From assembly GCA_963829055.1 (NCBI GenBank), contig CAWHHI010000017.1, forward strand, positions 1-64,000: DNA of 64,000 nucleotides, read 5' to 3'. The notes beneath the pieces were generated by a model. That model made no database searches. It was not told the origin of the DNA and was given only the letters and a program-made list of their open reading frames with translations. A program made the position numbers and the translations under genes. Positions within the stretch are counted from its first letter, which is position 1, and each line of letters opens with the position of its first letter. Shown piece by piece: positions 2 through 64,000 of this stretch. Source of the DNA: an uncultured Gemmatimonadaceae bacterium (GTDB taxonomy: Bacteria > Gemmatimonadota > Gemmatimonadetes > Gemmatimonadales > Gemmatimonadaceae).

Positions 2-991
2 CTACAGCTCCAACCCGAGCGCCTGGCCTAACGCCTGACGCCGACTGCGGGCAACACGCAGCACCTTGCCATCGCGAAGGATCACGGCGTGATCGCCGTT
101 CGTGAGCGGCTGCACCTCGCGGATCTTCGCGATGTGCACGATCGTCGAGCGATGGATGCGCACGAAGCGCCGCGCATCGAGTTGCGACTCCACGTCGCTG
201 ATCCGATCGCGACCCTTGTATGCGCGCGACGCCACGTGGACGACCACGTAATTATCCTCGGCCTCGACGAAGTCGATGTCCTCGACGCGAACCAGATGCA
301 CGCGGTTCCACTGCCGCACCGTGATGTGCCCGTCGATCGCCGCGGCGATGGCTGCCGCAGGCGCTGGTTCCGCGACGATCGTCGACGCGACGTCGGCGTC
401 GGCAACGGGCTGCGAGGTCGGTGCCGCTGGCGTGGGACGAACGGTCGGCTGCGCGGGCGCTGCGGGTGAACGGAACAGGAAATGTCCGATCGCCACGATC
501 ACGCCATACACCACGAGCGCGGGCGGATAGTACTCGGCCACACCCTGCATCGTCGAGCGAACCAGGGCGTCGAATCCGCCACCGTCTGCCGCGAACGCGG
601 CCGGAAGGCGGATCGCGACATTGCTCGACACGATGAACAACGTGCCAAGCATGAGGTGAGCGGCCGCGGACAGCGGCGAGAGCTGCCGATGCTCGCCGAC
701 GACGCGGAACCGCCGGGCCGAGTAGAGAATGAACGGCGTCGCCAACGCCCAGAGCGGCAGGATCGACAGCCGGTTGAGAACGGCGCTGACCACGTCTGCG
801 CGCCCGTCGAGTCGGACGAGCGCGACGGCTTGCACGGCTGCCACGACTGCGACAAGCGTCCACACACCGGCGATCGCGACGGAACCGAACAGCCGGCGAT
901 CACCGGCGAGGAGTCGGAAGGGATCCCGATTGAGCATCACGCTCCACGCTAGCAGGCGGATCGGAGCGACGAAAGGGCGTTCCAACAGCAA
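2..991 (-). CDS. Membrane-anchored LytTR DNA-binding domain protein (no receiver domain); ATG at 937 is a plausible start
   Basis: N-terminal hydrophobic helices, Pro/Ala linker, C-terminal LytTR motifs (IDFVEAEDNYVVVH; FVRIHRSTIV). Confidence 0.85.
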   Translation of the reverse strand: MLLERPFVAPIRLLAWSVMLNRDPFRLLAGDRRLFGSVAIAGVWTLVAVVAAVQAVALVRLDGRADVVSAVLNRLSILPLWALATPFILYSARRFRVVGEHRQLSPLSAAAHLMLGTLFIVSSNVAIRLPAAFAADGGGFDALVRSTMQGVAEYYPPALVVYGVIVAIGHFLFRSPAAPAQPTVRPTPAAPTSQPVADADVASTIVAEPAPAAAIAAAIDGHITVRQWNRVHLVRVEDIDFVEAEDNYVVVHVASRAYKGRDRISDVESQLDARRFVRIHRSTIVHIAKIREVQPLTNGDHAVILRDGKVLRVARSRRQALGQALGLEL

Positions 992-1041
992 GCTTGTTGC
1001 TGGGTGTGGGTGCTGGTTGCTGGGTGACGCTGGGTGCCTAC

Positions 1042-1183
1042 GTCATCCCGATGCGATGCTCGGCATCCGCGAGGGATCTTCTCGAACGTCATCGTGGGCA
1101 GTCCGGCTACGATGCCATCACAGCAGGTCCGCCCTTCGTCGCTACGCTCCTCAGGGCAGGCTCTGGCGCTCCTCGGGATGACA
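1042..1183. repeat. REP-like palindromic element, family B, nested inside GCTG-rich inverted arms (~995-1037 / 1195-1240)
   Basis: GTCATCCCGA...TCGGGATGAC termini; internal GAGGGATCTT...GTCCGGCTACGATG shared with other copies. Confidence 0.8.
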
Positions 1184-1254
1184 GATCCATCGCAGCACTC
1201 AGCGTCACCCAGCCACCAGCACGACCACCCAGCAACCAGCCGTCTTTCCTCGAG

Positions 1255-3880
1255 TCAACCTCCAGCCCGTAGCGCCACCAACGGATCGACTCGGCTCGCC
1301 CGTCGCGCCGGGAGCAGCCCCGCGACGAACGCCACGCACGCGAGCAGCAGCACCACCGCGGCGAACGTCGTCGGATCGTTAGGCTTGACGGCGAACAGCA
1401 AGGTCGAAAGCAGCCGCGTCGCCGCCAGCGCGCCCGCCACGCCGATCACGAGCCCCGGAATCACCAGCAGCAGAATCCGCCAGAGCACCAGGCGGACGAC
1501 GTTCCCCCGCCCCGCACCTAACGCGACGCGAATTCCGATTTCGTGGGTACGCTCCGCCACCGAATACGCAATGACGCCGTAAATCCCGATCCCGGCCAGC
1601 AATAATGCGAATACCGAGAACGCACCGATCAATCGGGCCTGAAACAGCGGCTCGGCGACCGTCTCGAGAATCGTGTCATCCATCGTCCTGATACTACTGA
1701 TCGCCTGGTTGGCATCGACCTCCTTCAGCGCTCGCCGCATCGCCGGGATGAGCGATCGCGGATCGCCCGTCGCGCGGACGACGAAGCTCATGTGGTTGAG
1801 AAAGAACGCCTGCGACGTCTGAAGGGTGGGCTGATACATCGCCGGCTCGCGATTCTCGTCGAGCCGCTTCTGTGTCACGTCATCCACCACGCCGACGACC
1901 GTGAGCCAGTCGCCCGGGCCGGGCCGGTCACGCATCGAGACACGCTTGCCAACGGCGCTCTCGCCCGGCCAGATCTGATCCGCCACCAGCTTGCTGACGA
2001 TCACCACGCCCGGTGCCGACGCCGCATCACTGGCAGCGAACTCTCGTCCGGCGAGCAACCGGATTCCCATCGTCGGAAAGTAGCCCGGAGTCACCACCAA
2101 CTTGGCCACGACGTAGTCCCGCGGTGGCTTGCGTCCCCCTTCGAGCTGGAAGTCGCCACGAATGAGCGATGTGCCTAACGGGCTATAGTTGACCGCGGCG
2201 GCTGACGTCGCGCCCGGCATGTGCGCGAGTCGCTCGAGCATGGCCTGATTGAACGCGTGCATCGCCGTCGCCGATCGGTACGTCGTCGCGGGAAGGTCGA
2301 CGGTCATGGTAACGAGACCGGCGGGTCGGAAGCCCAGCTCGACATGCCTCATGCGGAGAAAGCTCTGCGCCATGAGCCCCGCCCCGGCGAGAAGGATCAA
2401 CGCCAGCGCGACCTCTGCGACGACCAGGACGCCGCGCACTCCGCCATCCCGGGTCGACAGGTTGCGCGACGATGCCGCCAGCGACTCGCGCAGCGGACTT
2501 CGCGTTGCGCGAAGCGCTGGTGCGAGACCGAATACGACCCCCGTCACGAGCGACACGCCGAGCGCGAACGCGAGTGCCATGGTGTCCACACCGATCTCAT
2601 CCTGCCGCGGAATGCGCCCGGGCGGTGCGAGGGCCAACAGGGCCCTGACGCCGGCAACAGCCAGCACGGCGCCGATTGCGCCCGAGGCGAGCCACAGAAT
2701 GGCACTTTCCGTCACGAGCTGACGCATCAGGCGCCGCCGCCCGGCGCCTAACGCCGCGCGCACCGCCATCTCGCGCTGCCGGCTCGTCGCGCGCATGAGC
2801 AGCAGGTTCGCCACGTTCGCGCACGAGATGAGCAACACGAGCCCGACCGCGCCGGCGAACACGAGCAGAGACAACGTCGCATCCTTGACGATGGTGTCCT
2901 TGAGCGGCACGACACGGGCAACGAGCGTGTCGCGCTCAGCTTCACCGCCTCGGCGCGGCCCCGCACGAGCAATGGACGCGAGCTCCGCCGTCACCTGCGC
3001 CGGCGTCACCCCGTCTCCGAGTCGTCCGACGACCGTCAGGAGCCAGGAGATCGACATGTTGGGCGAGGCCTTTACTACGAGTGGCTCCCAGAGCTGCGCA
3101 TCCGACGGATACGAAAATCCCGCCGGCAGGACGCCAATCACAGTGTGGCGAATCCCGTCGAGCACGACACCGGAGCCGACGATCCGCGCGTTGGACCCGA
3201 ACCGACCACGCCACAACGCATCGCCGAGGAGCACGACGGGCGGAGCGCCTGGCGCTTCATCATCCACCGAGAACGCGCGGCCCATGGTCGGCCGGATGCC
3301 TAACGTTTCAAGAAACCCGGCGGTCACGGCGGCGCCCGGCAGTTGGACCGGGTCGCCTGCTCCGGTGAGCGTCGTCAGCAGCGTCTTCGATGCTCCGACC
3401 CGCGCCAGCAGTCGCTGACGACGACGGTATTCCACCCACTGGTGGTCCGCGATGGCCGGTGCGGAAATGAAATCGAACGCGCTTGTCTGCGGTCCGTAGG
3501 CGAGCCGCACCAGCCGATCGGCCTGCGGGTACGGCAGAGGACGAAGCAGCACCGCGTGCACCACCGTGAACATCGCGGTCGTCGCGCCAATGCCGAGCGC
3601 CAGCGTGAGTCCCGCGACGATCGTGAACGCTGGCGACCTCCGCAGCGTGCGCACGCCGTAGCGAACATCCTGCGCGAGTCGCTCGAGCCACCCGCCGCCC
3701 CGCATCTCCCGCGTCACTTCCTGAACGACGCCCAGGTTTCCGAACTCGCGGCGCGCCGCGAGCTCGGCGTCTTCACGACGCTCGCCACGCGCGACTCGCT
3801 CTTCTACCGCCATCCGCAGATGCGCGCGCAACTCCTCATCGAGCTCGCGGTCGCGACGACGACTCCAGGGAAACGATCAT
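1255..3880 (-). CDS. ADOP-type duplicated ABC permease (MacB/FtsX); indel near the start
   Basis: 858-aa ORF with [58 protein letters not shown] prefix; ATG overlaps the PadR stop. Confidence 0.93.
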
Positions 3881-4872: not shown

Positions 4873-5538
4873 ATGATCGCGAGCAATGCGCTGAGCAACG
4901 CGCGGAGCAATGCCCTACGCGTCCTGGTGCCCGGGCTTCTGCTTCCATCCCTCATGGCCCATGCCGGTGGCTGGGCCGTGATCACGGTCGATGACCTTCC
5001 CGACTACGCCGAGGCCGCGAAGCCGGTCGCACTCTCGTTCATGGTCCGCCAGCATGGCGTGACTCCGATGGAGCGACTCAGCCCGAGCGTGGAAGCGACG
5101 TCGGGACGACTCTCTGCCCGCGCGATGGCCTTGCCCGCAGGTCAGCCCGGCCGCTATGCCGTATCGCTCGACTTGCCGAGTGCGGGCGACTGGTCGATCA
5201 CGATCCGGAGCGGATTCGGCAAGAGCGACGTGACGCTGCTGCCGCTCCCGGTCGTCGACCACGGCGAGCGCCTAACGAAAGCAGTGAACGATACGGAGCG
5301 AGGTCAACGCCTCTTCATCGCGAAGGGGTGTGCCATGTGCCACCAGCAGAGCGGCGCGGGCCCGATCCTCGACGGCAAACGCTTCGATGTCGCCTACATC
5401 AGCGGATTTCTCGCCAATCCGCCGTCAGCGGGGCGCGCGCAGGGCAAGCCGACGATGCCGAACCTCGGCCTCAAACAGCGAGAGATCACGTCGCTCGTCG
5501 CTTACCTGAACAGCGATCGTCAGGTCACCGCGCGCTGA
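4873..5538 (+). CDS. Secreted YtkA/FixH-like Ig domain fused to a monoheme cytochrome c
   Basis: GAGGT RBS, signal peptide, GGWAVITVDDLP, CAMCH heme motif, distal Met (PTMPNL). Confidence 0.75.
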   Translation: MIASNALSNARSNALRVLVPGLLLPSLMAHAGGWAVITVDDLPDYAEAAKPVALSFMVRQHGVTPMERLSPSVEATSGRLSARAMALPAGQPGRYAVSLDLPSAGDWSITIRSGFGKSDVTLLPLPVVDHGERLTKAVNDTERGQRLFIAKGCAMCHQQSGAGPILDGKRFDVAYISGFLANPPSAGRAQGKPTMPNLGLKQREITSLVAYLNSDRQVTAR

Positions 5539-7541
5539 CCTGACGGTCGCGGAGCGGTACCGGACTCGACGCGCGTGCACCGGCGATGCCGGCGCGCGGC
5601 AGCTCGAGCGTGAACGTGGACCCTTCGCCGAGGGCCGTGCTCACGGTAACGTCGCCGCCCATGCCGCGCGCGAGGTCGCGGCTGATTGCCAGACCGAGCC
5701 CCACACCCTCGTTAGGCCTGTTGAGCGCGCGATGCCCCTGCACGAACGGCTCGAACAGCATTGGCAACTGGTCGGGACCGATGCCTGGCCCGGTGTCCTG
5801 GACGTGAACCCGAACCGTCGTAGCGTCCGCATCACACCGTAGGCGCACCATGCCATCTTCGGGCGTGTATTTCACGGCATTGGCGAGCAGGTTGAGCACT
5901 ACCTGTCGGACCTTGTCGCCGTCAGCGGCGGCAACGATGTCGTCACTACATGTCTCGTACGTGAACGTCAGGCGCCGCGCCGACAACTGCGGACCCACGA
6001 GCGACTCGAGACCGGTGAGCGTGTCGTTCATGTGGACGTCATGCACGGCATACTGCATCTGGCCGGCATCGATGCGCGCGAAATTCAGCACGTCCGTGAT
6101 GAGCGTGAGCAGATGCGCCTGACTCCGCGCGATGCGATTCAACGCGTCGCGCTGCGCGTCAGTGACGGGACCATGAATACCGAGCTCGATGAGCTCCGCG
6201 TACCCCGCGATCGCGTTGAGCGGCGTGCGGAGCTCGTGACTCATCATCGCGAGGAAGTCGCTCTTCGCGCGGTTGGCGGCTTCCGCTTCGCCCCGCGCGC
6301 GCTCGGCCTCGGCTCGCGCGATTTCCGCTTCGCCCATCGCGATCTGCAACCGGCGATTCGCGCCGGACAGCTCGTCGGCCACGCGCTGGGCATCGGCCGC
6401 GCGCTGCTCGAGCTCACGTCGCGCTTCCGCGACTTGCTCGGCCATCTCGTGGAAGCTGGTTGCGAGACGGCCAACCTCATCACCGCTGCGCACAGCGATC
6501 GGGTGCTCGTACGTTCCGGTCGCCACCTGCTCGGCGGCCGAGGTGAGCGCCACGAGCGGCCGCGTTATGCGGCGCCCGATCGTCCACGCGAGCGCGGCAC
6601 CCGCGGCCAGCAGCACGAGCGACATCCACGCGAGCTGCTCCACCGTCGCCTTGAGTCGCGCGAGCAGCGTACGGAGTGGCGACTCGATCACCACGACCCA
6701 TGGCGTACCGGCGACCGGTGTTTCCTCGGCAATGAGGCGACCCGAGCCCGGACGTTCGTGCCAGAGACGTCCCTCGCTGGACGTTCGACTCGTCGGCGCC
6801 GCCGCCGCGCTACCTGGCGCCGACGTCCACCCTGACCCGTCGGTGTTACGCGAGTACAGCGTGAGGTCCTCGCGCGTGAGCTCCCGTAGCATCTTCATCG
6901 CCGAGGCGGGTCCCGCAACGTAGCGCGGCTCGAGCACGTATCCGGCTCGCTGCTGGCCGATCACGACCGGAGCGACGACCCAGAACATTGTGCGGTTTCC
7001 GGCCGGCGTGAACGGACCGAAGTGCACGGCGTCCGCGGCGTCATCGTTGCTCACGGGCGCCAGGGTCTTCGGGTCGATCAGGGGGATAGCAGCGGGCAGC
7101 GGCCTGCCGACCGACGCGACGACGCGTCCATTCGCATCGGTCAACAACACCGGGAGCGAGTCGGGGCCGCCCATGAGGCCAACCAGCACGCGAGCCGCGG
7201 CGACGCTGTCGCTCGCAGCGACACGGGTCCTGGTCGCGGTGGCGGCGAGGACCCTCGACAACGACGGATGGGCGACGGCGTCGCGTGTCATCTGGCGCGC
7301 GTTGCGCGATTGCGTCTTCCATGCTCGCGGCCACGAGCTGCGTCGCATGCACGAAGCGATCGCGCACCACGGACTCCGACCGGTGCGCGAGTGCGACGTA
7401 TGTGAACGCGAGAAACGCGGCGAGGCCCGCGGCGAGCACCGCGGTGATGAGAAGCGGCAGCTTCCATTCGATGGAAAGCGCGCCTCGGAGCCGAGGAGTG
7501 TGGGCCGGCTCGAACACCGGCGGGCCTTCGCTTGAACTCAT
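5525..7541 (-). CDS. Sensor histidine kinase (TM, HAMP, HisKA, HATPase); frameshift near 7290-7350
   Basis: [38 protein letters not shown]-terminal TM lies in the 7041..7541 frame. Confidence 0.9.
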
Positions 7542-7852: not shown

Positions 7853-8956
7853 ATGTCGATCAGTTCGCTAGTCAATGCACCACAGCGTCAGGCGTTAGCC
7901 TCGCTTGTCACCTCCGTCGCAGCATACGAGGGGCCGCGGGCTACGACCTCACCGCGTTTCGGGCTGGTGGAGATGGAACTGAGCGCGATTGGGCTGCCGC
8001 ACATGCCCGCTGGCTTTCACGCGCGCGATGGTGCCGTGACAGGTCTCTCGCTTCGCGGGTGCGGACTCGCGTCGGTCCACGACGCGATCGGCGACCTCGA
8101 CTCGCTCATCGACCTCGACCTGACGGACAATGGCCTGACGACGCTTCCCCGCTCGATGGAGCGCCTGACGAGCCTCGAGTGTCTATGGCTCGACCGAAAT
8201 GCGCTCGATGTCGTACCGGACTGTGTGTGGGAGCTACCCAAGCTTCGTTCGCTGGCCATTGGCGCGAACAAACTGACATCGCTCCCGCCACGCGTCGCAT
8301 CGGCGGCGGGGCTCACGCATCTGTTCGCTCACTCGAATGCGCTAACGAGTATTCCCGATGAGATCGGCCATCTCGCGCATCTGCGAACACTCGACCTGGC
8401 CGAGAATCCCATCGACGCGCTTCCGGACGCCATTGGGGATCTGGCGGAGCTCACCATTCTGTATGTGCATCGATTGCGGCTCTCGACCCTGCCCGCCGCC
8501 ATCGGCCGCCTGTCGCGACTCGCCTACTTCAACGCGAGCGGCAACAGGATCACCGAGCTTCCGGCGACGATCGGTGAGCTCACGGCGCTCGTCGATCTGC
8601 GACTGGATGACAACGAGCTCGAGTCACTGCCTGAATCGTTAGGCAGGCTGACGACGCTCCGGCAGCTTCACGTGCGCGGCAACCGCCTCGCATCCGTGCC
8701 CCCGGCGGTCAGAGGGCTCTCCGGCCTCACGCACCTGGACGTGAGGGATAATCGACTACGAGTCATTCCGGAGTTCATCGGAGAATTGTCGCGACTAGTG
8801 TCGCTCGATCTCCGCAGCAATGCGCTCACGACACTGCCGGAGAGCATCGGCGCACTACAGCACCTTGCTCGGCTCGACCTGCGGTGGAACCGGATCGTTC
8901 CCCGACCCGTGTGGCTCCAAGCGCTCCAGGACCGCGGTTGCACTATCTGGGATTGA
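7853..8956 (+). CDS. Leucine-rich repeat protein (about 12 repeats of 23 aa)
   Basis: Repeated LxxLxLxxNxLxxLPxxIG units. Confidence 0.92.
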   Translation: MSISSLVNAPQRQALASLVTSVAAYEGPRATTSPRFGLVEMELSAIGLPHMPAGFHARDGAVTGLSLRGCGLASVHDAIGDLDSLIDLDLTDNGLTTLPRSMERLTSLECLWLDRNALDVVPDCVWELPKLRSLAIGANKLTSLPPRVASAAGLTHLFAHSNALTSIPDEIGHLAHLRTLDLAENPIDALPDAIGDLAELTILYVHRLRLSTLPAAIGRLSRLAYFNASGNRITELPATIGELTALVDLRLDDNELESLPESLGRLTTLRQLHVRGNRLASVPPAVRGLSGLTHLDVRDNRLRVIPEFIGELSRLVSLDLRSNALTTLPESIGALQHLARLDLRWNRIVPRPVWLQALQDRGCTIWD

Positions 8957-11011: not shown

Positions 11012-11761
11012 GTGGCCGCGAGCGAGACAAAGATGGGAAGAGCGGATCGTTCTGGCGACCGACCGAGAAGCGTCGCCAGTCGACCCGAGCCCAAGCTTAC
11101 GATCCCCGCCTCGGCACTTCGGTGCCGTCGCAAGTTCCTCCGTTTCTTCCCGGGCGGCTTCGCCGACGAGACGTACATCGACTGGGAGCGCGGCTACAAG
11201 TGGGAGGCGCACGAGCGCTGGATGGACGTGCTCGCGCCCGTCGCCTTTCGTGATGCTGCTGCGGCAACGACGGTTCGCGGACATCGCGTCCCACGCCGTG
11301 TCGATCGAGTCGCGGACGAACCTGCTGTTCTCGTTCGAGAAGATGGCGTTGCGGGACGCTGTGAAGCTGCCGGCCGGCGCAGAAGCGTTCGCCGACCGGG
11401 CTCTACGAGTTTCTCCATGGTCGAGCGGGTGACGAGCGACGCTTCGAGCAGTGGTGCGAGATGGTGCGGATCGCTGCCGCGTCGACAGACGCGCGTGCTC
11501 ACGTGGCCGATCGTGACGGTGTTCGGCTTCATCGCCCAACCGGACCGCCACATGTTCCTCAAGCCTAACGTGACGCGCGTCGCCGCCGGCGAGTACGACG
11601 TCGAGTTCACGTATGCTTCGCGGCCGAACTGGACGACGTACGCGAGCCTGCTCGACTTCGCGATGCGCGTCCGCGCCGACCAGCGCGACCTCGGACCGCG
11701 GGACATGATCGACGCACAGTCGTTCATCTGGGTGCAGGGCTCGGACGAGTACGAGGAGTAA
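11012..11761 (+). CDS. Hypothetical protein (frameshifted)
   Basis: Protein-like segments RKFLRFFPGGFADETYIDWERGYKW, SRTNLLFSFEKMALRDAV, DMIDAQSFIWVQGSDEY. Confidence 0.7.
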   Translation: MAASETKMGRADRSGDRPRSVASRPEPKLTIPASALRCRRKFLRFFPGGFADETYIDWERGYKWEAHERWMDVLAPVAFRDAAAATTVRGHRVPRRVDRVADEPAVLVREDGVAGRCEAAGRRRSVRRPGSTSFSMVERVTSDASSSGARWCGSLPRRQTRVLTWPIVTVFGFIAQPDRHMFLKPNVTRVAAGEYDVEFTYASRPNWTTYASLLDFAMRVRADQRDLGPRDMIDAQSFIWVQGSDEYEE

Positions 11762-11870: not shown

Positions 11871-12723
11871 ATGCCCATCGAACACGTCTCCGATACCGCC
11901 CGCTGGGTAGCGTTCTACCGCGCGATGGAGACGGAACGCCGCGGACGCACTGTTCCGCGATCCGTACGCACGAGCGCTCGCGGGCCCCGAGGGCGAGCGC
12001 ATCGTCAAGGAGATGCCGCGCGGGCGGGCCACCTCGTGGGCGATGATCACGCGAACCGTCGTGTTCGACGAGATCATCCTCGATGTCGTGCGGCGTCACG
12101 ACATCGACATGGTGTTGAACCTCGCGGCGGGACTCGATGCGCGTCCGTGGCGACTCAAGTTGCCGGCGTCGTTGCGGTGGGTGGACGTCGACCTGCCGGC
12201 GATGCTCGAGTACAAGGCGAGCCACATGCGCAACGTGCCGCCGGTGTGCCAGTACGCGGCCGTGCCGGCAAATCTGGTGGACGCCGGTGAGCGCGCTGCG
12301 GTGTTCGGTCGACTGGGCTCGGAGGCGACGGAAGCCCTGGTGGTGACGGAGGGGTTGCTCATCTACCTGACGGATGAGCAGGTCGCGGCGCTCGCGACGG
12401 AGTTGCACACGCAGCAGAGCTTTCGCTGGTGGCTGCTGGACCTGGCGAGCCCCGACCTGCTCAAGCTGCTCGCCCGGAGCTGGGGGAAGACGCTCGAGAA
12501 GGGCAACGCGCCGTTCAGGTTCGCGCCGCCTAACGGGACGGACTTCTTCCGCGATCTCGGGTGGCGCGAGGTGTCATATCGCTCCGCGATGGAGGAGGCG
12601 CAGCGAATCGACCGCGAGATGCCGATGATGTGGCTGTGGCGGTTGCTGGGCCGGATCTCGTCGCCGGAGCGCCGGGAGGGCGCGCGCCGGATGTCGGGCT
12701 TCGTGCTGCTCGAGCGCGTGTAG
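11871..12723 (+). CDS. Class I SAM-dependent methyltransferase (LCM/TcmP-like); one frameshift
   Basis: VSDTARWVA.YRAMET, VLNLAAGLDARPWRL, WVDVDLP, TEGLLIYL. Confidence 0.88.
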
Positions 12724-15504: not shown

Positions 15505-15540
15505 GCACATTTCGTTAGGCATTTCGAGGAGACTGAACTC

Positions 15541-48150: not shown

Positions 48151-48802
48151 TCGCTCGGATGCCGTCGGCCATCTCCACGCGCATCGGTCATGGTGTCGCT
48201 CATCGTGGCGTTCTCGGCTCGCCACGAGCGCGACACGGCCGTGCGCAGGAGAGTCGATCGTACACTTCCGTGCGCAGCTCTCGGCGCGACGCGCGCGACG
48301 CTCGAGCGCCTGATCGACTCGGCGCGCGTCGCGGGCCTGCCGGTCGACCCGCTGTACTCGAAGGTGCGCGAGGGTGTCTTTCGCTCGGCGGACGAGGCGC
48401 GCGTCGTCGCCGCCGTGCAGCGACTCGCGCCGCGATCTCGGCGACGCCCGTTCGGCGTTAGGCGACAGCGCCGGCGCCGAGGAGATCGCGGCCGGAGCGA
48501 ACGCGCTGCGCGCCGGCGTCCGACCGGCTGACCTGTCGCGACTGCGCGATTCGCGCGGCCGGCGTGGCGATCATCCGCTGACGGTCGCGCTCGTGGTGCT
48601 CGCCGATCTCGCGACGCGCGGCGTCCCGCCGGCGATGGCCGCGGCGTCCGTGAACGAGCTCGTTGCGCGCAACGTGTCCGACGGCTCGCTGCTGTCGTTC
48701 CGTCAGAACGTCGAGCGTGACCTCGTCGGCGGCCGTTCGGCGGCGTCCGCGCTTGATGCGCGAACGAAGTCCATGATCGACGACGAGCGACGACGGCCGT
48801 AG
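48147..48802 (+). CDS. Hypothetical helical exported protein (frameshifted)
   Basis: ATGA-coupled to the upstream gene; IDSARVAGLPVDPLYSKVREG, VVLADLATRGVP. Confidence 0.7.
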
Positions 48803-49050: not shown

Positions 49051-52000
49051 ATGACCGAGCTGCGAGACCGCCTTCAGGCCAGTCTCGGCGAGAGCTACCG
49101 GCTCGACCGTGAGCTTGGCGGCGGCGGCATGTCGCGCGTGTTCGTCGCCCAGGACACGCGACTCGGTCGCGAGGTCGTCGTCAAGGTGCTGTCGCCCGAC
49201 CTCGCCGCAGGGGTCAACAGCGAGCGGTTCCATCGCGAGATCCTCGTCGCGGCGCAGCTGCAGCACCCGCACATCGTGCCCGTGCTCGCCGCCGGCGAGA
49301 CCGATGGGCTGCCGTACTTCACGATGCCCTACGTCGCCGGCGAGTCACTGCGTCGCCGGCTCGACGGTGGGAAGCCGCTGCCGGTCGTCAACGCCGTCGC
49401 CGTGCTGCGCGACGTCGCGCGCGCGCTCGCGTACGCGCACGAGCATGGCGTCGTCCATCGCGACATCAAGCCGGACAACGTGCTCGTCGCCGGCGGTTCC
49501 GCGGCGGTCACGGACTTCGGCATCGCGAAGGCGCTGTCGTCGTCGCGCACGTTCGGCGCGGCGAGAACCTGACGCGCGATCGGTAACTCACTCGGCACAC
49601 CGGCGTACATGGCGCCCGAGCAGGTAGCCGCCGACCCGAACGCCGATCATCGCATCGACATCTACTCGTTCGGCGCGATGGCGTACGAGCTCCTCACCGG
49701 GCAGTCGCGCCGTTCGACGGGCGACCGCCGCACGCGGTGCTGTCCGCGCACCTGACCGAGTCAGCCCGCGCCCCTCGAGACGCGAGCGCCGGACGTACCG
49801 CCGGCGCTCGCGGCGCTCGTGATGAAGTGTCTGGCGAAGAATCCCGCCGATCGTCCGCAGACCGCCGACGAGATCGTGCGCGCGCTCGAGCGCGTCGACC
49901 TCTCGGGCGACTGGCGTGCGCCGCCGGCCGAGACGGCCGCGACAGGCGGCGTCACGCACGTCGTACGGCGGCGATCGTCGCGGCCGTCGTGATTGCCGTG
50001 GCTGCTGGCGGCTGGGCGATGCTGGGAGCGGTTTCGCACGCGCGGCACCCGCCCCCAATCGCGACATGGTCGCGGTCGTTCCGTTTCGCGTCGCGACGGC
50101 CGACCCCGCGCTGCACTACCTGCGCGAAGGGATGCTCGACCTGCTCGCGGCGAAGCTGACCGGCGAGGGCGGGCTGCGCGCGACCGACCCGCGGCAATTG
50201 CTCGACGCGTGGCGAACGGCCGGCGGAACCGAATCGTCGGAGCTGCCGCGCGATGACGACGCTCGCGCTCGCGCGCCGCCTCGGCGCGGGACGTCTCCTG
50301 CTCGGCGACGTCGTCGGGACGCCGAATCGGATCGTGCTCACGGCGTCGCTGCTCGGCTCCGCGCGCGGCGACTCGATCGCGAAGCTGAGCGTCGAGGGTC
50401 CGCCCGACAGCCTCGCGTGGCTGGTGGACCGACTCGCCGCCCGACTGCTCGCCGAGACGTCGGCGGAAGGCGCGAGCCGGTCGCGCGAGCCTAACGAGTA
50501 CGTCGCTGCCCGCGCTGCGCGCGTACCTGGACGGCCAGACGAAGATGCGACGCGTGGATGTCGTCGGCGCGGCGAAGGACTTCGAGCGCGCGCTCGACGC
50601 CGACTCGACGTTCGCGCTCGCCGCGCTCGGGCTGCGCATGGCGTCGTCCTGGTACGGCGACGCGACGCTGCAGCAGCGCGGGCTCGACATCGCGTGGCGC
50701 GAACGCGCGCGACTCAGCCAGCGCGACCAGGCGCTGCTGCTCGCCGTTGGCGGGCCCTCGCTACCCCGAAGCGCCAACGGCGCAGGAGCTGCTCGAGGCA
50801 CGCGAGCGCTACCTCGCCGTCGCACCGGACCGCGCGGACGCCTGGTACTTGTTAGGCGACCACGTCTTCCACTACGGCTGGGTGCTCAACGTCCCGAACC
50901 CGGAGGAGCGCGCGCTCGAGTCGTTCCGCCGCGCGTCGGAGATCGACTCGAGCTACGTCGTCGGCTACCTCCACGCGCTGCCGCTCGCGCTCTCGCTCGG
51001 CGACACGGCCGCGGCGCGACGGTTCGAGCGGCTGCGACTCGCGTCGGACACGTCGCGCTACTGGTACGTGCTGCACCGCTGGCAGAAGGCGTACGCGCTG
51101 GGCGATTCCGCGCGCGGCCGCGCGATCGCCGACTCGATCGATCTGTCGCAGTACGTCTACGGGATGGATCAGATCGCGTTCTACGACGGCACCGGCGCGC
51201 CTGACGTGCAGGCGCGGCATCGACACCGCGCTGCAAGAAGGCGACCGGACGATCCGGCGCGCCGCGGGATCGAGCGGCTGGCTCACGATTTCGAGCTCGT
51301 GGCGGGACGCCGTCGGCGGCGCTGGCGCACCTCGTCGCGTCGGCGGATAGCGCCGACCGACGTGAACATCCCGATCCTCGAGGTCCGCGACGCCCTCATC
51401 GCCGACGGCGACACGACCGCGGCGCTGGAGGGCGCGCGCGCGCTTGCAGCGCTGGGAGGCGGCGTCCCATCTCGAGCGACTCGGCGCGACGCGCCAACCA
51501 GCGCGCGGCGACGCGCGTGCTCGAGCCGTGGCGTCTCTCCCACGGCGATACGTCGCAGACGCGCCGAAGCATCGATCGCCTTCGCTCCATCGCGCGCCCG
51601 CTCACGGGCGCGCGCAGAGTCGACGCCGAGGTCGAGATCGCGGCGATCGAGGCGATGCATGCGGATGTCGACGCGCAGCCCGGACCTTCGTGCGGCGACG
51701 TTGCGACTTGACTCACTGCTCCGCGTGCTCGACTACGCCGACAGCGAACCCGGGGCGAACGTCGTTCGCGAATCTCGTCGCGGCGCGATTGCTGGAGAAG
51801 CTGGGCGACATGCGCGGGGCGCTCACCGCGGCCCGCCGCCGCACGGACGCGTGGGTGCAGAACAACCCGTATCTCGGCGACGCAGCTCCGCGAGCAGGGT
51901 CGCCTCGCGGCGCTCGCCGGCGAGCGAGAGGAGGCGATCAGGGCGTATCGGCATTACCTCGCGCTACGAGCGCGATGCGGAGCCCGCGATCAGGCCGCAG

Positions 52001-52057
52001 GTGGAAGCCGTTAGGCGAGAGCTCAAGCAGCTCGAGAAGTCGAGCGGCGGGAAGTAA
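49051..52057 (+). CDS. Ser/Thr protein kinase with TM, TolB-like and TPR regions (frameshifted)
   Basis: [34 protein letters not shown]. Confidence 0.92.
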
Positions 52058-54261: not shown

Positions 54262-55731
54262 CTAGCTCATCCCCCACAACGACGCGGTTTGCTTCCGCAC
54301 CGGCTGCGGGATCAGCTCGGACTCGACGTCGCCGCGCGGGAGCGTCAGCGTGAACGTGGAGCCCTGACCGTACACGCTCGTCACTGCAAGGTCGCCGCCC
54401 ATGGCGCGCGCGAGCTCACGGCTGATCGACAGGCCGAGGCCAGTGCCGGCGGACGCCCGCGTTAGGCCGTTGTCGAGCTGCACGAACGGCTCGAAGATCG
54501 CATCGAGCTTCTGCGGCGGAATCCCCGGACCCGTGTCGGTCACGCGGATCTCGATCGCATCGATCGAGTCGAACGCAATCGACGTCGATGGCGCCGTGGC
54601 GCGGCGTGAACTTGCACGCGTTCGACACCAGGTTCACGACGATCTGTCGCACCTTCTCGCGATCGGCGCGGACGATCAGCTGATCCGCGGCCGCACGCCA
54701 ACCGTACGTCGAGCTCCTTCGCATCGATCAGCGGGCGACAGAGGGGGTCCACCGCGAGGCGAATGTCGCGGACCGGCAGCGGCCGTGATCCGCAGCTCGA
54801 CCCGGCGCGCGTCCACTCGCGCGAAGTCGAGCAGGTCGTTGATGATCGCGAGCAGGTGACGCTCGTTCGACTCGATGCGCTTGAGGATCGAGAGCTGCTC
54901 CTCGCTCAATGCCACCGTAGATCCCCATCTCGAGCAGCTCGAGGTAGCCCTGGATCGCGGTGAGCGGCGTGCGCAGCTCGTGGCTCATCATCCGCAGGAA
55001 GTCCGTCTTCGCGCGGTTCGCTTCCTCGGCCGCTGTGCGCGCCGTCTGCTCCTGCTCGAGGACCGCGGTGCGCTGCAGTTCGAGCTGACGCCGATCGGCG
55101 ATGTAGCGACGAATGTTCGCCAGTGCGAGCGCGGCGGCAATGAACGAGACGAGCAACCCGATCGCGAGCAGGATGCCGGCGTCGCTCGCACGCGCAGCCT
55201 GCTCGCGGGACCGCGCGGCGAACAGGATTCGCTGGTCGTCGCGGAACTCACGAAGCAGCGCGTCGACACGATCGTGCATGTCGGTGATGTCCTCGATCTC
55301 GCATCGCGATCGCCGCGGAGTCCAGTCCGCGCTGCTGCCGGAGGTTCGCGATGCTGCTCGAGATCATCGAGATGGGCCGCAAGCACGGGCGCGAGTGAGT
55401 CCGCGCGGGCGCTCGAGGCAGCATCCATAGTGCAGCAGCAATGGCGCGGAGCCGCTCGACGTTGCGCTCCGCGCTGCACGCGCGCCTGCTCGAATCGATC
55501 GCGGTCGTCGACGTTGCCGCCTAACACGTAATCACGCTGCGCGATTGCGGCGTCATCGATGCTGGCGCGCAGCATGTCGACCTGCTCGATCACGGCCTCG
55601 GTGTCGCCTGCGCTGCGCGTCGCCACCGCGAGCTTGCCCAGGCTGACGTATGAGAGCGTACCAATCAACGCGACAGCGACGACGCCGGAGCCGAAGTTGA
55701 GGCTGACTTTTTCGTAAAGCGTGAGCGTCAT
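54262..55731 (-). CDS. Sensor histidine kinase with CHASE3-like periplasmic domain (frameshifted)
   Basis: [45 protein letters not shown]. Confidence 0.88.
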
Positions 55732-56500: not shown

Positions 56501-58951
56501 ATGCGCGACATCCTGCACGACCTTCGCTATTCCGTTCGGAGCCTCGCCCGGACGCCCGGCTTCGCCCTGCTCGCCATCCTGACGCTCGCGCTCGGCATCG
56601 GCGCCAACAGCGCCATCTTCAGCGTCATCAACGGCGTCATCCTCAAGCCGCTCGGCTACCCCCAGTCGGACCAGCTCGTGATGATCACGAGCCAGTTCCC
56701 TACCCTGGGGTTCGACAAGTTCTGGGTCTCACCACCCGAGTATTTCGACCTCCGCGAGCGCGCAAAATCGTTCAGCGAGATCGGCGCCTACCGATCGACC
56801 GCCGTGAACCTCAGCGAGGGGGATACGCCGGAGCGGGTCAACGCCGTCAGCGCGAGCTCGTCCCTCTTCAAGGTGCTCGGCGTCCCGGCCTACCGCGGGC
56901 GTGTGTTCAACGAGCAGGAGGACCTCCCGAACAGCGAACCGGTCGCGCTGGTCTCGTACGAACTGTGGCAGCGCGCGTTCGCCGGGAATGCAGGGTTGGT
57001 TGGGAAGCAGATCGATATCGAAGGCCGCAAGGTGCTGGTCCTCGGCATCATGCCCCGCGGCTTCGACATCCACGATGCCAAGGCCGAGGTCTGGTTTCCG
57101 CTGGGGCTCGACCCCGCGAACCGCCAGAATCGAGGCTCCCACTTCCTCTATCTCGTAGGACGGATGAAGCCGGGGGTGGGACTCCGTCAGGCGAACGCCG
57201 AGCTGAATCCGATGCTCGCGCAGTGGGGGCAGATCACGCCCAACACGCACGTACCGGATCCCGTGAACCATCGGATCCAGTACGCGTCGCTGCAGAGTGA
57301 CGTCGTCGGCAACATCGTGCGCGCACTGTGGGTCCTGCAGGTCGCCGTCGGATTCGTGCTGCTCATTGCCTGCGCGAACATGGCGAACCTGCTGCTCGCT
57401 CGCGCCGAATCCCGGCACCGCGAGTTCGCGATCCGCACGGCGCTAGGCGCGGGTCGTGGCCGTCTGCTGCGACAGTTCATGGCGGAAGGCGTGACGCTCG
57501 CGGTGCTGGGCGGCGCGGCTGGTCTCGCACTCGCGTACGGCGGGCTCAAGGCACTGATCGCGGCCAACCCGAACAGCCTTCCGCGATCCGCGGACATCGG
57601 GCTCGATGGGTCGGTGGTGCTGTTCACGGTGCTGACCGCCCTGCTCACGGGCGTCGTCTTCGGCCTCGCGCCACTCCTTCACGTTGGACAGCGTGCCGTG
57701 AGTCTCGCGCTCAAGGAAGGGGGGACGCGCACGACGGCGACCATCACGCGCAATCGTGTGCGTCGAGGTCTCGTGGTGACGGAGGTCGCGCTGGCGGTGA
57801 TGCTGGTGGTCGGCGCGGGGCTCATGCTCAAGAGCTTCTGGAAGCTCATGCGCTTCGATTCCGGCTTCGATCGTGCGAACGTGTCCACCTTCGGGCTCGT
57901 ACTCCCGGCGTCGAAGTATCAGGACCAACAGCGACGCGTCGCGTTTTTCCGCGACCTCACGAACCGGCTCAAGGAGACGCCCGGCGTGCAGGCCGCGGCG
58001 GCAATGCAGGGGCTGCCGCCGTTCCGCCCGGTCGACGCGAACGACACGCAGTTCGAGAACTACCAGCATGTGCAGGGTGGGCCGCCCGCGAACGTCGACT
58101 ACTACCAGTCGGCGACAGTCGACTACACGACGGCGATGAAGATTCCGGTGCTGGAAGGGCGAACGTTCGGGCCGCAGGACGGTGCGACGACGACACCGGT
58201 GGTGCTCGTCAACGAGACGCTCGCGAAGCTGTACTGGCCCAAGGAGAGCGCGCTCGGACATCGCATTCGCACGTGCTGCGGCGACAAGATCCCGTGGGCA
58301 ACGATCGTCGGTGTCATGAAGGACGTGAAGCAGGGCGGTATCGATCAGAAGACGGGCACGGAGCTGTACTTCCTGTACGATCAGACGGTGGCACTCTTCG
58401 GCGCCGCGCCGCGCAACATGAACGTCGTCGTGCGGTCGACGCTCCCGCTCGAATCGCTCGGCCGCGTGGTGCGTGAGCACGTGAACGCCATGGACCGCAC
58501 GCTTCCGATCGTGCAACTACGGACGATGGACGACGTGTTCGCCGATTCCGTGGCGCGGCAGCGGTTCCTCGCGCAGTTGCTCGCGATCTTCGGTGGGCTC
58601 GCGCTCGTGCTCGCCGCGGTCGGGACGTACGGCATCCTGTCGTATCTCGTGACCGAGCGGCAGCGAGAGATCGGCATCCGGATGGCGTTAGGCGCGGATC
58701 GTGGTCGCGTGCTGTCGATGGTGCTGCAGCAGGGTTTGTCGACGACCGTAATCGGTCTCGTGCTCGGCGTCGGCGGCGCACTCGGCCTCACGCGCCTGGC
58801 ATCGTCGCTTCTGTTCGAGGTCAAGCCCTCGGATCCGCTCACGTTCGTGGCAGTCGCGGGGATGATCACGCTCGTTGCCTTGCTGGCGTGTGTGGTTCCA
58901 GCGCGCCGAGCGACGCGGGTGGACCCAATGGTGGCACTGCGCGAGGAGTAG
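56501..58951 (+). CDS. ADOP-type duplicated ABC permease (intact)
   Basis: 816 aa; LALGIGANSAIFSV, LLIACANMANLLL, EIGIRMALGA, RATRVDPMVALREE. Confidence 0.95.
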   Translation: MRDILHDLRYSVRSLARTPGFALLAILTLALGIGANSAIFSVINGVILKPLGYPQSDQLVMITSQFPTLGFDKFWVSPPEYFDLRERAKSFSEIGAYRSTAVNLSEGDTPERVNAVSASSSLFKVLGVPAYRGRVFNEQEDLPNSEPVALVSYELWQRAFAGNAGLVGKQIDIEGRKVLVLGIMPRGFDIHDAKAEVWFPLGLDPANRQNRGSHFLYLVGRMKPGVGLRQANAELNPMLAQWGQITPNTHVPDPVNHRIQYASLQSDVVGNIVRALWVLQVAVGFVLLIACANMANLLLARAESRHREFAIRTALGAGRGRLLRQFMAEGVTLAVLGGAAGLALAYGGLKALIAANPNSLPRSADIGLDGSVVLFTVLTALLTGVVFGLAPLLHVGQRAVSLALKEGGTRTTATITRNRVRRGLVVTEVALAVMLVVGAGLMLKSFWKLMRFDSGFDRANVSTFGLVLPASKYQDQQRRVAFFRDLTNRLKETPGVQAAAAMQGLPPFRPVDANDTQFENYQHVQGGPPANVDYYQSATVDYTTAMKIPVLEGRTFGPQDGATTTPVVLVNETLAKLYWPKESALGHRIRTCCGDKIPWATIVGVMKDVKQGGIDQKTGTELYFLYDQTVALFGAAPRNMNVVVRSTLPLESLGRVVREHVNAMDRTLPIVQLRTMDDVFADSVARQRFLAQLLAIFGGLALVLAAVGTYGILSYLVTERQREIGIRMALGADRGRVLSMVLQQGLSTTVIGLVLGVGGALGLTRLASSLLFEVKPSDPLTFVAVAGMITLVALLACVVPARRATRVDPMVALREE

Positions 58952-59212: not shown

Positions 59213-60449
59213 ATGCCCATCCGTCGGTCCTTCCGGTTCGTCGCTGCCGTGCTGCTGACCCTCCTCGTCCCGAGCCGAGTCCGGGCGCAGGAACCCGTGA
59301 CCGTCATCCGCGCCGCGCGCGTGCTCGACGGGACCGGGCGCGCCGTCCCGAACGCCATCATCGTCGTCCGCGGCTCGCGCATCGTCGCGCTCGGGCCTAA
59401 CGCGAGCATTCCCGCCGGCGCGCGCGTGTACGACCTCGGCGCGCTCACCGTGCTGCCCGGCATCATCGACGCGCACGACCACCTGGCGTGGCACTTCAAT
59501 CCGCAGGGCCGCTACCACGCCGGCAACGACGGCGAGACCGAGTTCGAGGGCGCGCTGGCGATTGCCGGCAACGCGAACGAGACGCTCCGCTCAGGCATCA
59601 CGACCGCCCAGAGCCTCGGCTCGCGTGAGGACAAGGCGCTGCGCGCCTCGATCGCGAGCGGCGCGATCCCCGGACCTCGACTGCTGACGTCACTCGTTCC
59701 GCTCACCGAGCGGAGCAGCCCGGACACGCTCCGCCAGCTCGTGCGCGAACGAAAGCAACAGGGCGCGGACGTGATCAAGCTGTTCGCGTCCAAGAGCATT
59801 CGCGATGGCGGCGCCCAGACCATGACGGACGAGCAGCTCGCCGCGGCCTGCGGTGAGGCGAAGAGCGTCGGTCTGCGCAGCGTCGTTCACGCCCATAGCG
59901 CGGAGAGCATGCGGGCGGCCGCGCTCGCCGGGTGCTCGCAGATCGAGCACGGTGTATTCGCCACGCCAGAGGTTCTCAAGCTGCTGGCCGAGCGGAAGGT
60001 GTACTTCGATCCGCAGGTGTGTCTCGTCTTCCGCAACTACCTCGACAACCGCGCGAAGTACAACGGCATCGGCAACTACAACGATTCCGGGTTCGCGTCG
60101 ATGGAGCGCGCGCTGCCACTGGCGGCGAAGATGTACAAGCAAGCGATCGCCACACCGGGGCTCGACGTCGTGTACGGCACCGACGCCGTCGCGGGCGCGC
60201 ACGGCCGGAACGTGGAGGAGCTGGTCTGTCGCGTACGCGACGGTGGCCAGAAGCCGATGGACGCGATCGTTGCGGCGACGTCGCTCAACGCGCGCGCGAT
60301 GGGAATGTCCGACTCGTTAGGTACGATCGCCGTCGGGCAAGCTCGCCGACATCATCGCCGTCGATGGCGATCCGTCGCGCGACATCGAGGCGTTGAGGCG
60401 CGTCCTGTTCGTGATGAAGAATGGCCGAGTGTACCGGAACGACCGTTAG
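59213..60449 (+). CDS. Secreted amidohydrolase family protein (frameshift near 60340)
   Basis: [30 protein letters not shown]. Confidence 0.9.
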
Positions 60450-60461
60450 GCAGGCCGCACA

Positions 60462-62690: not shown

Positions 62691-62847
62691 TGTCATTCCG
62701 AGCGGAGCCATGTCATTCCGAGCGAGCGCCGGAGGCGCGGAGTCGAGGAATCGCGATCGTCCCGGTAGAGGGCCCTCTACCGGGACGGTCGTCGATTCCT
62801 CGACTGCGCTGCTCGCTCGCTCGGAATGACAACCCGCTCGGAATGAC
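62691..62847. repeat. REP-like element, family A (doubled termini)
   Basis: Termini nearly identical to 7652-7830. Confidence 0.88.
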
Positions 62848-63003
62848 CCTCTGCCTAACGAACAGGTCAGGTCGACCGGTCAAGCTTGGCTGAGCCGGAC
62901 GGACCGACCACGAATCGCGTAGCTCCGATCACCGCCTGGTGAGCTCGAGCGGTGGCATCGTCAACGATACTCGCGTCGACAGTGCCCTGATCCGGAGCTC
63001 CGC

Positions 63004-63460
63004 ATGCGCTCGATCATCCAATGCGGCGGCACCATAACGCTGCTCGCAACGCTGCTCGCGATCCCAACTGTCGCCCGCTCACAGGCGACCACCGCGCCAC
63101 ACACGCCGCGGGCACCGGTGTGGGCCACGCTCTCGCTCGGACGGGGCGACCTCAAGGTGAACTGTGCGATCTGCCGCACCACGGACCAGACCTCGTGGGC
63201 CGCGGATGTCACCGTTGGCGGGTGGATCAATGCGCGGACGACCCTCGGCGGCGAGCTCGGGGCATGGCGGCTCGCAGGCGACGAAGCCACGCAGCGGGTG
63301 ATGATGGTCAGCGCGGTGAGCCAACTCTATACGTCGTCGTGCCTCACGCGACACTCGTGCAGGGCTTCAACAGGCGCCTGTACCTCGACGACGAGAAGGT
63401 GACGAGCGGCTCGCAGTTGAAGCTCGTCCGCTTCGGTCTTGGGGTGGGGTGCGTCGATGA
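63004..63460 (+). CDS. Exported hypothetical, probable small beta-barrel (frameshift or deletion)
   Basis: Signal peptide, CxxC loop, amphipathic strands. Confidence 0.5.
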
Positions 63461-64000
63461 GCCGCGCTGTTCGATGGGCTGTCACCGCCGTGGCCGTGTT
63501 CACTGGTGCCGTCGCCTGCGCGAGCGACGAAGTCGCCGCGCCAATGCCCGCGGTCGCAACCGATCCGTCCCGCGCGTTCAGCCTCTGGGCGCCAGGGCCT
63601 AACGACACATGCACGAAGGAGCAGCACGATGCGTACTCCGTCGTCGGCCCCGACGGCAAGCTGTATCCGACGTGGCATCCACCGGTCGATCCGGCATCCG
63701 GGTGTTCGTTCGGCCACGAGCATGGACGCGATCCGCACGGCTCGCATCTCTACCGACTCGTCGGTGACATGCCGTTAGGCGTCGCGAACGAGGCGCTGGA
63801 GACGTTCGACCCCGCGAATCCCCGCCGCGAGGACCACGTCGGTCACAAGATCGAGTGGGAGAACGACGTCCCAATGCGCGTGAACGCCGGCGTCGCGTCG
63901 GCCATCCTGCAGGTGACGTGCGACGTGATGATCAAGCTGCACCAGGGCACTCATTCGAAGGACGCATTCACGAACAACCTGCACGAGATGGTCTATCACA
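63457..64000 (+). CDS. His-rich lipoprotein, partial (runs off the window; absent from the ORF track)
   Basis: MSRAVRWAVTAVAVFTGAVAC lipobox; YPTWHPP..CSFGHEHGRDP, EDHVGHK, LHQGTHS..NNLHE; frame open to the window end. Confidence 0.75.
   Translation, partial: MSRAVRWAVTAVAVFTGAVACASDEVAAPMPAVATDPSRAFSLWAPGPNDTCTKEQHDAYSVVGPDGKLYPTWHPPVDPASGCSFGHEHGRDPHGSHLYRLVGDMPLGVANEALETFDPANPRREDHVGHKIEWENDVPMRVNAGVASAILQVTCDVMIKLHQGTHSKDAFTNNLHEMVYH

Follow-up and report, generated by a model that had tools for sequence, protein, structure and literature searches.

A hyper-abundant non-palindromic 8-bp word in Gemmatimonadaceae genomes coincides with the integron core site

We analyzed the 8-mer GCCTAACG (reverse complement CGTTAGGC), hereafter the word, in a stretch of 64,000 nucleotides from an uncultured Gemmatimonadaceae bacterium; this stretch, the window, comprises positions 1-64000 of contig C17 of genome G000 (G, C and L numbers denote genomes, contigs and loci). 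The word, whose core is CCTAAC, differs from its own reverse complement and is thus non-palindromic. An earlier note on the same stretch had proposed a selected DNA signal. This core proposal is well supported: the word behaves as a signal selected or driven at the level of DNA, and not of protein or RNA, because it is used in four stop-free frames, overlaps stop codons, lies outside called genes as well, arises by synonymous changes and is conserved between species. The word is also the core site of integrons and is used as such in this family, which the earlier note had missed. By analogy with known systems, it may tentatively be understood as a self tag that biases DNA transfer.

Results

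Abundance and length of the word

The window contains 41 copies of the word (20 on the plus and 21 on the minus strand) and 64 CCTAAC cores (34 and 30, respectively). These counts exactly reproduce those of the earlier note, and the site coordinates match as well, its numbers giving the start of the core, one base inside the 8-mer. The excess over chance that it had described is confirmed by 100 dinucleotide-preserving shuffles, which give a mean of 1.11 and a maximum of 4 for the 8-mer and a mean of 6.31 and a maximum of 15 for the core. The whole assembly (7,784,024 bases in 20 contigs, 67% G+C) carries 5004 copies (2457 plus, 2547 minus), corresponding to one per 1.56 kb or 0.64 per kb. Though itself only 50% G+C, the word ranks 14th among all 8-mers of G000 by frequency. 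An order-3 Markov model of the genome predicts 257.5 copies, which makes the word the strongest outlier of all (z = 296). Alignment of 7103 CCTAAC cores reveals information only at both flanking G positions and nearly none further out; the word is therefore exactly 8 bp long. Four one-mismatch forms are enriched genome-wide: ACCTAACG (827 copies), GCATAACG (583), GCCTAACA (435) and CCCTAACG (428).

Codon and amino-acid usage bend to the word

Genes in G000 were called with our own crude gene caller (7160 calls covering 77% of the bases), which is weakened by frameshifts in the assembly. All four stop-free frames are used, and no copy lies in either frame that would read TAA or TAG. The most common reading is xCG TTA GGC (Leu-Gly, gene on the opposite strand; 1317 of 5004 copies), followed by xxG CCT AAC Gxx (Pro-Asn; 926), xGC CTA ACG (Leu-Thr; 614) and xxC GTT AGG Cxx (Val-Arg; 451). 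A further 398 copies span a gene boundary and 1298 lie outside called genes. In 5163 higher-confidence genes, within-gene synonymous shuffling gives an expectation of 133.7 copies (88.6 + 45.2) compared to 3012 observed (1381 + 1631). A null that preserves dicodon counts, and hence already includes the word's own dicodons, gives 1583. The enrichment survives both of these codon-aware nulls, the kind of check that the earlier note had proposed.

The observation that the word is made from rare codons extends from the window to the entire genome. TTA constitutes 1.6% of leucine codons, and 1229 of the 2634 TTA codons are found inside the word, as are 557 of 3472 CTA, 835 of 7685 CCT and 402 of 5323 AGG codons. 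Stop codons are also embedded in it (168 of 670 TAA and 124 of 1336 TAG), so the overlap with stops suggested previously holds genome-wide, but neither of the two examples offered for it does so by the present gene calls: the site at 60445 is out of frame within an open frame of 749 codons, and that at 52310 is a 6-mer only. The Leu-Gly reading TTA-GGC described at 43640 and 58687 is seen at both sites (Table 1).

The word fills 10-46% of the peptide contexts that permit it: 1224 of 5279 [APST]-L-G, 834 of 1803 x-P-N-[GAVDE], 554 of 2722 [GSRC]-L-T and 402 of 4020 x-V-R-[LPHQR]. The Pro-Asn dipeptide is 1.39 times as frequent as expected, an excess about as large as the number that the word encodes. 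The word thus overrides codon preference and, to a degree, the choice of amino acid.

The word is independent of assembly errors

The G000 assembly contains many single-base errors. The rpoB gene (C19:47991-52509) is split into two frames and a DPP IV/S9 peptidase gene at window positions 15541-17671 into three, and contigs from public runs (3-4 independent runs) lack one base at 13561, 13697, 16252, 16309, 16724, 16838 and elsewhere. These errors explain the fragmented genes of the window and the completeness of 86%. The word itself is independent of them. Its presence in short-read assemblies rules out a basecaller artefact: in short-read metagenome-assembled genomes (MAGs) built with MEGAHIT and SPAdes, Gemmatimonadaceae loci (L008-L017, L025, L027) have 5-9 copies per 4-8 kb, around one per kb, which answers the artefact question in the way that the earlier note had named. 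Logan contigs from four studies cover window positions 1-20000, and 0 of the 40 best-supported differences (of 525) fall in a copy. Near-identical sequence occurs in runs of 17 studies from rhizosphere, soil and sediment. No neighbouring 8-mer is common enough to act as a source of mis-reading. In Gemmatirosa kalamazoonensis KBS708, 50-kb stretches of the finished plasmids 1 and 2 contain 36 and 30 copies, respectively, compared to 0 and 1 copies of a reversed control word on the same stretches.

Layout along the chromosome

No contig of G000 shows a strand bias. Windows of positive GC skew hold 1071 plus and 1145 minus copies, and those of negative skew 1324 and 1344 (Spearman -0.06). Cumulative GC skew is monotone over the large contigs and is thus informative for replication polarity. 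The lack of strand bias claimed from the window therefore stands genome-wide, with no link to GC skew. Checks of replichore polarity and spacing had also been suggested; no polarity is found, and the spacing is more even than chance. Gaps below 200 bp number 213 compared to 611 expected from an exponential model, about threefold rarer and in all four pair orientations, and gaps of 500-2000 bp number 2776 compared to 2245 expected.

Three stretches of G000 are free of the word: C6:5441-55038 (49.6 kb), C11:1-46790 (46.8 kb) and C6:591809-623330 (31.5 kb). Each is located at the end of a contig, and in two of them the G+C content is higher. They carry housekeeping genes, including trp and aro genes, FtsK, FolD and GroES, of which FtsK, chorismate synthase and FolD are second copies with 47-59% amino-acid identity to others in the genome. 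A prophage or island nature was rejected, since these are housekeeping duplicates of single-copy genes at contig ends. Probably, these stretches stem from another organism through chimeric joining or mis-binning, or they are large foreign inserts. In practical terms, the word can serve as a strong marker when such MAGs are binned or screened for foreign and chimeric segments.

Distribution and conservation among relatives

All seven genomes of the genus of G000 contain 2501-5112 copies each, and across a family sample of 251 genomes the number ranges from 1 to 7821. When the first genome listed per genus is taken, 22 of 68 genera are rich, defined as at least 400 copies (the 68-genus tally includes G013 and G048, and the 251-genome sample includes G094, G241 and G256, all flagged unpublished). 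In poor genomes the number is 5-50, as their own Markov statistics predict, and relatives without the trait have 17-28, equal to their own Markov expectation of 9-66. No alternative word was found in two poor genomes: 200-kb samples of G064 and G008 contain no other over-represented 7- to 10-mer, and on these samples the idea of dialects was rejected. Outside the family, 127 genomes of the phylum were covered, and the only genus to stand out is g102 of family f2 (181-726 copies), together with G030 of family f3 from the search for relatives (345 copies).

A quick maximum-likelihood RpoB tree of 26 rows, for which a careful search is unfinished, shows rich and poor lineages interleaved in at least four well-supported places. 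The rich G062 and G152 (3896 and 4141 copies) group with the poor G253 (8 copies), the rich G061 and G068 with the poor G008 and G044, and the rich G053 and G083 with the poor G046 and G064; one clade is entirely rich (G000, G014, G100, G080, G129, G190). The rpoB gene itself holds 51 copies in 14 rich genomes and none in 11 poor ones. At one Leu-Gly site in rpoB, CGTTAGGC is present in 12 of the 14 rich and none of the 11 poor genomes, in which leucine is encoded by CTC, CTG or once CTA with varied neighbours, for example CGCTCGGC, CCCTGGGC and CACTCGGC. Across the rpoB and rpoC sites compared, which include rpoB-rpoC in genus g52, poor relatives have CGCTCGGC, CGCTGGGC, GTCTGACG or GCCTCACG in place of the word. 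Depending on the site, a different change at a different position (C>T, C>A, T>C or G>A) is thus needed to make the word. This implies that the whole word is the target and that no single mutational bias is at work.

Among congeners, whose nucleotide identity is about 72%, the word is unchanged at 16 of 29 orthologous sites, compared to 4431 of 33755 background 8-mers (13.1%), i.e. word sites are kept about four times better than other 8-mers. Sites that are not conserved are mostly one-mismatch forms, and some are shifted by a few bases, indicating local turnover. Strand polarity of the word in genus g51 was rejected, as the DNA there shows mixed strands. The rich genome G151 of this genus (L084-L088, G151:C1) also has a second, unrelated family of repeated words, TAGGGGCTAG and relatives, with 6-9 copies in 96 kb.

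The word is the R box of the family's integrons

The core consensus of integron attC sites is RYYYAAC/GTTRRRY, as given in an excerpt of PMC3053210. GCCTAAC/GTTAGGC fits this consensus, and the attC sites of the family itself use the word as their R box. The few copies in poor relatives are clustered on a single strand at intervals of 550-650 bp and follow short open reading frames (ORFs) of the same direction (G021:C95, C80 and C43; G019:C3). Each spacer in these cassette arrays is an attC site of 95-100 bp, with GCCTAACA as R'', an L''/L' palindrome, and CGTTAGGC as R'. In G021, the attC sites have the word as their R''/R' box, and 26 of 27 sites are on one strand. The same boxes flank cassettes adjoining intI in the rich G053 and the poor G064. 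A typical attC site follows a cassette ORF and forms an imperfect inverted repeat, 57-141 bp long, in which R and L boxes are paired. This structure is found in the arrays of G021, G053 and G064 but not at the G000 copies. Chromosomal cassette arrays with uniform attC sites were located at G021:C95:1-24000 (L089+L090), G021:C80, G021:C43, G019:C3, G053:C2 around 857 kb and G064:C1 around 4.147 Mb. For the one-strand clusters in G021, G019 and G029, a giant repeat gene was considered and rejected, as there is no tandem repeat and no ORF of at least 400 residues; these are cassette arrays.

The copies in G000 are lone double-stranded 8-mers with no attC hairpin partner. An attC hidden Markov model (HMM) gave 0 matches in this genome, and inner complementarity was present in 0 of 88 inverted R-box pairs. 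G000 retains only an N-terminal stub of intI (C4:2922-3170). The R box is probably older than the genome-wide enrichment, because the box occurs in two families of the order and the enrichment is confined to parts of one.

An IntI above the curated cut-off is encoded in 145 of the 251 family genomes. Integrons in Gemmatimonadota are mentioned in an excerpt of PMC8618304, and the share found here is far above the 10-20% quoted there for proteobacterial groups. IntI does not track the trait: in a hand tally of one genome per genus, with E <= 1e-85 standing in for the curated cut-off, it is present in 12 of 22 rich and 25 of 46 poor genomes.

Uptake machinery and the search for a tracking gene

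ComEC is encoded in 31 of 31 relatives, and ComEA, secretin and type IV pilins are also encoded. No gene was found to track the trait among the families tested (ComEC, ComEA, secretin, ComP_DUS, Tex, RecC, IntI, Vsr, methylases, Eco57I and pilin). Tex was rejected because it occurs in three rich and four poor genomes, and the IntI N-terminal domain was rejected as well. RecC is present in 0 of 15 rich genomes and, among the 27 genomes searched, only in the poor G046 (C1:115684) and G064 (C1:3760827), which are sisters of the rich G053 and G083. Neither Vsr, a C5 methylase, PF01555 nor a PF02384 methylase was found in G000. Among five genomes searched, a C5 methylase-Vsr pair occurs only in the poor G046 (C4:461064-463555), PF01555 in none, and a strong PF02384 match only in G053, the matches in G062 and G253 being weak and inside an Eco57I-type gene. 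An Eco57I-domain protein of about 1060-1400 residues is present in all five, rich and poor alike.

Beside eno and ftsB, G000 has a frameshifted orphan type IV pilin-like gene (C16:947580-948095; L155:7580-8095), and intact relatives of 155-163 residues are found in G001, G005, G080, G100, G129, G190 and G371. Full-length members occur in the rich G000, G080, G100, G129, G190 and G371, the copy in G371 lying on a 2.3-kb contig without the word, and a remote one in the poor G012. This pilin was rejected as a tracking gene, as it does not follow the word across the family.

Discussion

Hyper-abundant genome words are known from few lineages, and their origin and spread are long-standing questions. 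To our knowledge, only the uptake signal sequences (USS) of Pasteurellaceae, the DNA uptake sequences (DUS) of Neisseriaceae and HIP1 (GCGATCGC) of cyanobacteria reach the scale of abundance seen here. The word resembles USS and DUS in being short and non-palindromic, present about once per kb, equal on both strands, placed in permissive frames and evenly spaced. As in those systems, it is common to related species and lacking in foreign DNA, and the genomes encode ComEC, ComEA, secretin and type IV pilins. Such patterns would be produced by molecular drive via sequence-biased DNA transfer, as proposed for USS and DUS. Among the functions listed in the earlier note, the uptake-sequence type fits best with regard to symmetry, spacing, absence from foreign DNA and the presence of ComEC, ComEA and secretin; no reader protein has been found for it. 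By analogy, we tentatively suggest that the word may be a transfer-biased self tag of this type, based on the effect size, the whole-word target, the symmetry, the spacing and turnover, the lack of copies in foreign DNA and the on/off switching between sister lineages. We infer both biased transfer as the force and uptake as the reading step.

In such a mechanism, some protein would read GCCTAACG/CGTTAGGC as double-stranded DNA, with a specificity matching the R box of the family's attC sites. Fragments bearing the word would enter cells, or be transmitted and recombined by some other route, more often than word-free ones, and as a consequence word-creating mutations would spread and word-destroying ones would be replaced. 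This directional force on the whole 8-bp word would push it near saturation in G000, where it would fill the places that proteins permit, one per kb-sized fragment being sufficient. Natural transformation has been linked with cassette traffic in published work (excerpts of PMC12614218 and PMC3410848). Each integron cassette of the family carries the word, and cassette DNA would therefore be tagged for such uptake. It is conceivable, though on balance unlikely, that sequence-tagged DNA exchange has here arisen independently for a third time, and for the first time outside Proteobacteria, with the tag taken over from the integron recombination core. If so, every integron cassette in the family would be a pre-tagged parcel for uptake, carrier genomes would have been rewritten with the cassette mark, and natural transformation and cassette traffic would be mechanistically coupled in one of the commonest soil phyla.

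Several observations weigh against a transfer tag. ComEC, ComEA and secretin occur in poor genomes too and are therefore non-discriminating. The ComP-type receptor family PF16732 (ComP_DUS) gave no match over cut-off in the five genomes searched, and full-length copies of the orphan pilin exist in no more than 6 of 15 rich genomes, with a remote one in 1 of 12 poor genomes. Unlike DUS in Neisseria, close inverted pairs are depleted, so that there are no Neisseria-style terminator pairs. All rich clades share one word, unlike the dialects of DUS, and poor sister lineages, including the two sampled for an alternative, are without any. The present word also differs in belonging to another phylum, in its 8-bp length without a flanking consensus and in its coincidence with the integron core site. 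A random 8-mer would match the core with a chance of about 0.4%, and a model of uptake alone leaves this coincidence unexplained. Direct selection for a chromosomal binding site would likewise produce even spacing and conservation. Natural competence is not documented for this phylum in the papers searched, and none was found that links Gemmatimonads with uptake sequences. The earlier remark that no description of the word exists agrees with our literature searches, which found none in texts without their supplements.

One alternative is that the word is under direct selection as a chromosomal binding word, similar to HIP1, to which a nucleoid, SMC-loading, repair or replication-associated protein binds with a small benefit per site. 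HIP1 is likewise an 8-bp word of comparable density that is conserved and has spread by substitutions within genes. Its function is still unknown and the palindrome is linked to methylase sites, in contrast to the Gemmatimonadaceae word, which is not palindromic and is tracked by no methylase. The hyper-abundance, the even spacing, the above-background conservation and the chromosomal density on megaplasmids would all fit such a structural role, and no uptake receptor was found. Selection per site would, however, need to beat codon bias at 10-46% of permissive sites and even alter amino acids, and the trait is fully absent from close sister lineages sharing the same biology. Moreover, there is no strand or replichore pattern and no candidate protein that tracks the trait. 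We consider a binding word unlikely, although it is the alternative that survives best.

A direct role in integron recombination appears less likely still. Here, IntI or a related tyrosine recombinase would read the double-stranded R box, and the genomic copies would be attG-like landing or exchange sites, or decoys. The fit of the word to the attC consensus (excerpt of PMC3053210), its use as the R''/R' box in G021, G053 and G064 of this family and order, the 145 family genomes with IntI and the intI stub of G000 agree with this. In contrast to attC sites, the 5004 copies of G000 are lone, have no hairpin partner by either the HMM or the 88 inverted pairs, and lie inside conserved genes, and their abundance is independent of IntI in the tally of rich and poor genera. 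Insertion sites within essential genes such as rpoB would be harmful. IntI also requires little beyond GTT, whereas all eight positions of the word are constrained.

An origin linked to DNA modification, one of the options in the earlier note, is improbable and gained no support. It would require a non-palindromic adenine methylase, type IIG or BREX-like, that marks CCTAAC, with coupled repair or discrimination favouring the marked word. BREX-type enzymes use 6-bp non-palindromic sites with A at position 5, a shape shared by CCTAAC, and an Eco57I-domain protein is encoded. The latter is present in rich and poor genomes alike, and the remaining candidates do not follow the trait: Vsr with C5 methylase is confined to a poor genome, PF01555 is absent and strong PF02384 is limited to G053, with nothing in G000. 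Several substitution types create the word, and restriction-type sites are usually avoided in genomes, not enriched.

A Chi-like recombination signal, shielding broken or incoming DNA from a helicase-nuclease, is very improbable. Like Chi and KOPS/AIMS, which are over-represented 8-bp words read by DNA-processing motors, the word has the length and the non-palindromic character of E. coli Chi, and the drive acting on an uptake tag would act equally on a signal that protects incoming DNA. Those words are skewed with the direction of replication, which this one is not, RecC is missing in the carriers searched (AddAB and AdnAB were not surveyed), and known Chi sites are far less enriched. Finally, a sequencing or assembly artefact from systematic basecalling at a modified site, or a codon or dicodon by-product, is already refuted: whatever the single-base errors of this long-contig assembly, the split rpoB and the one-base differences from short-read contigs might suggest, the word is carried by short-read MAG loci and by the finished genome of a cultured strain, lies clear of the 40 listed differences, has no frequent neighbour as a source and is not accounted for by synonymous or dicodon nulls.

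The suggested transfer tag would imply sequence-biased transformation in soil Gemmatimonadota and would give a handle on how integron cassettes travel. In this family, which is abundant in soil and rhizosphere, about one-third of the genera have the trait. It flips between very rich and baseline in close sisters, and the word has an independently known biochemical meaning as the integron core. Natural contrasts for finding the reader are provided by G053 versus G046, by G062 and G152 versus G253 and G115, and by G061 and G068 versus G008 and G044. Gemmatirosa kalamazoonensis is a cultured carrier, so the idea is testable.

Copies in the window and neighbouring genes

Table 1 Positions of the word in the window, with its state in congeners or the surrounding gene
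Feature	Position	Strand	Remark
GCCTAACG	26..33	+	G001 and G002 without it; word 12 bases upstream, at 14, instead
GCCTAACG	1377..1384	-	in ADOP/MacB-type permease gene 1255-3831(-); one-mismatch forms in 3 congeners
GCCTAACG	2173..2180	+	conserved in G001, G002, G005
GCCTAACG	2746..2753	+	conserved in G005; ACCTAACG in G001, G002
GCCTAACG	3298..3305	+	conserved in G001, G002, G005
GCCTAACG	5270..5277	+	conserved in G002, G005
GCCTAACG	5710..5717	-	
GCCTAACG	8637..8644	-	within leucine-rich repeat (LRR) protein gene
GCCTAACG	11563..11570	+	conserved in 5 of 5 congeners compared
GCCTAACG	12528..12535	+	conserved in G001, G005
GCCTAACG	13166..13173	+	congeners without it; G004 has copy at 13321 instead
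GCCTAACG	15513..15520	-	
GCCTAACG	16770..16777	+	in DPP IV/S9 peptidase gene, broken by single-base assembly errors
GCCTAACG	18256..18263	-	
GCCTAACG	20545..20552	-	
GCCTAACG	21016..21023	-	
GCCTAACG	22820..22827	-	
GCCTAACG	25941..25948	+	
GCCTAACG	27469..27476	+	
GCCTAACG	28417..28424	-	
GCCTAACG	29136..29143	-	
GCCTAACG	30153..30160	-	
GCCTAACG	33601..33608	+	
GCCTAACG	34952..34959	+	
GCCTAACG	36056..36063	+	
GCCTAACG	39665..39672	-	
GCCTAACG	42554..42561	-	
GCCTAACG	43217..43224	+	
GCCTAACG	43639..43646	-	xCG TTA GGC (Leu-Gly) in FtsX-domain gene
GCCTAACG	45151..45158	-	
GCCTAACG	46248..46255	+	
GCCTAACG	48456..48463	-	
GCCTAACG	50489..50496	+	
GCCTAACG	52009..52016	-	
GCCTAACG	54460..54467	-	
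GCCTAACG	58686..58693	-	xCG TTA GGC in ADOP/MacB-type permease gene 56501-58951(+)
GCCTAACG	59395..59402	+	
GCCTAACG	60444..60451	-	out of frame inside open 749-codon frame
GCCTAACG	62853..62860	+	
GCCTAACG	63597..63604	+	
GCCTAACG	63773..63780	-	
23 further CCTAAC cores	27..63779	both	one flank altered

Paralogous, duplicated MacB/FtsX permeases of the ADOP type are encoded at window positions 1255-4242, 30664-33094, 43524-44153 and 56501-58951, one of them adjoining a PadR regulator. This permease family has 28-32 matching places per Gemmatirosa megaplasmid. The LRR protein gene at 7853-8956 appears to vary between strains, since contigs of several runs skip from about 7669-7832 to about 9004-9119. 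Many contigs end at 7830 and 9097, where the depth is very high, suggesting that repeated flanks surround this gene.

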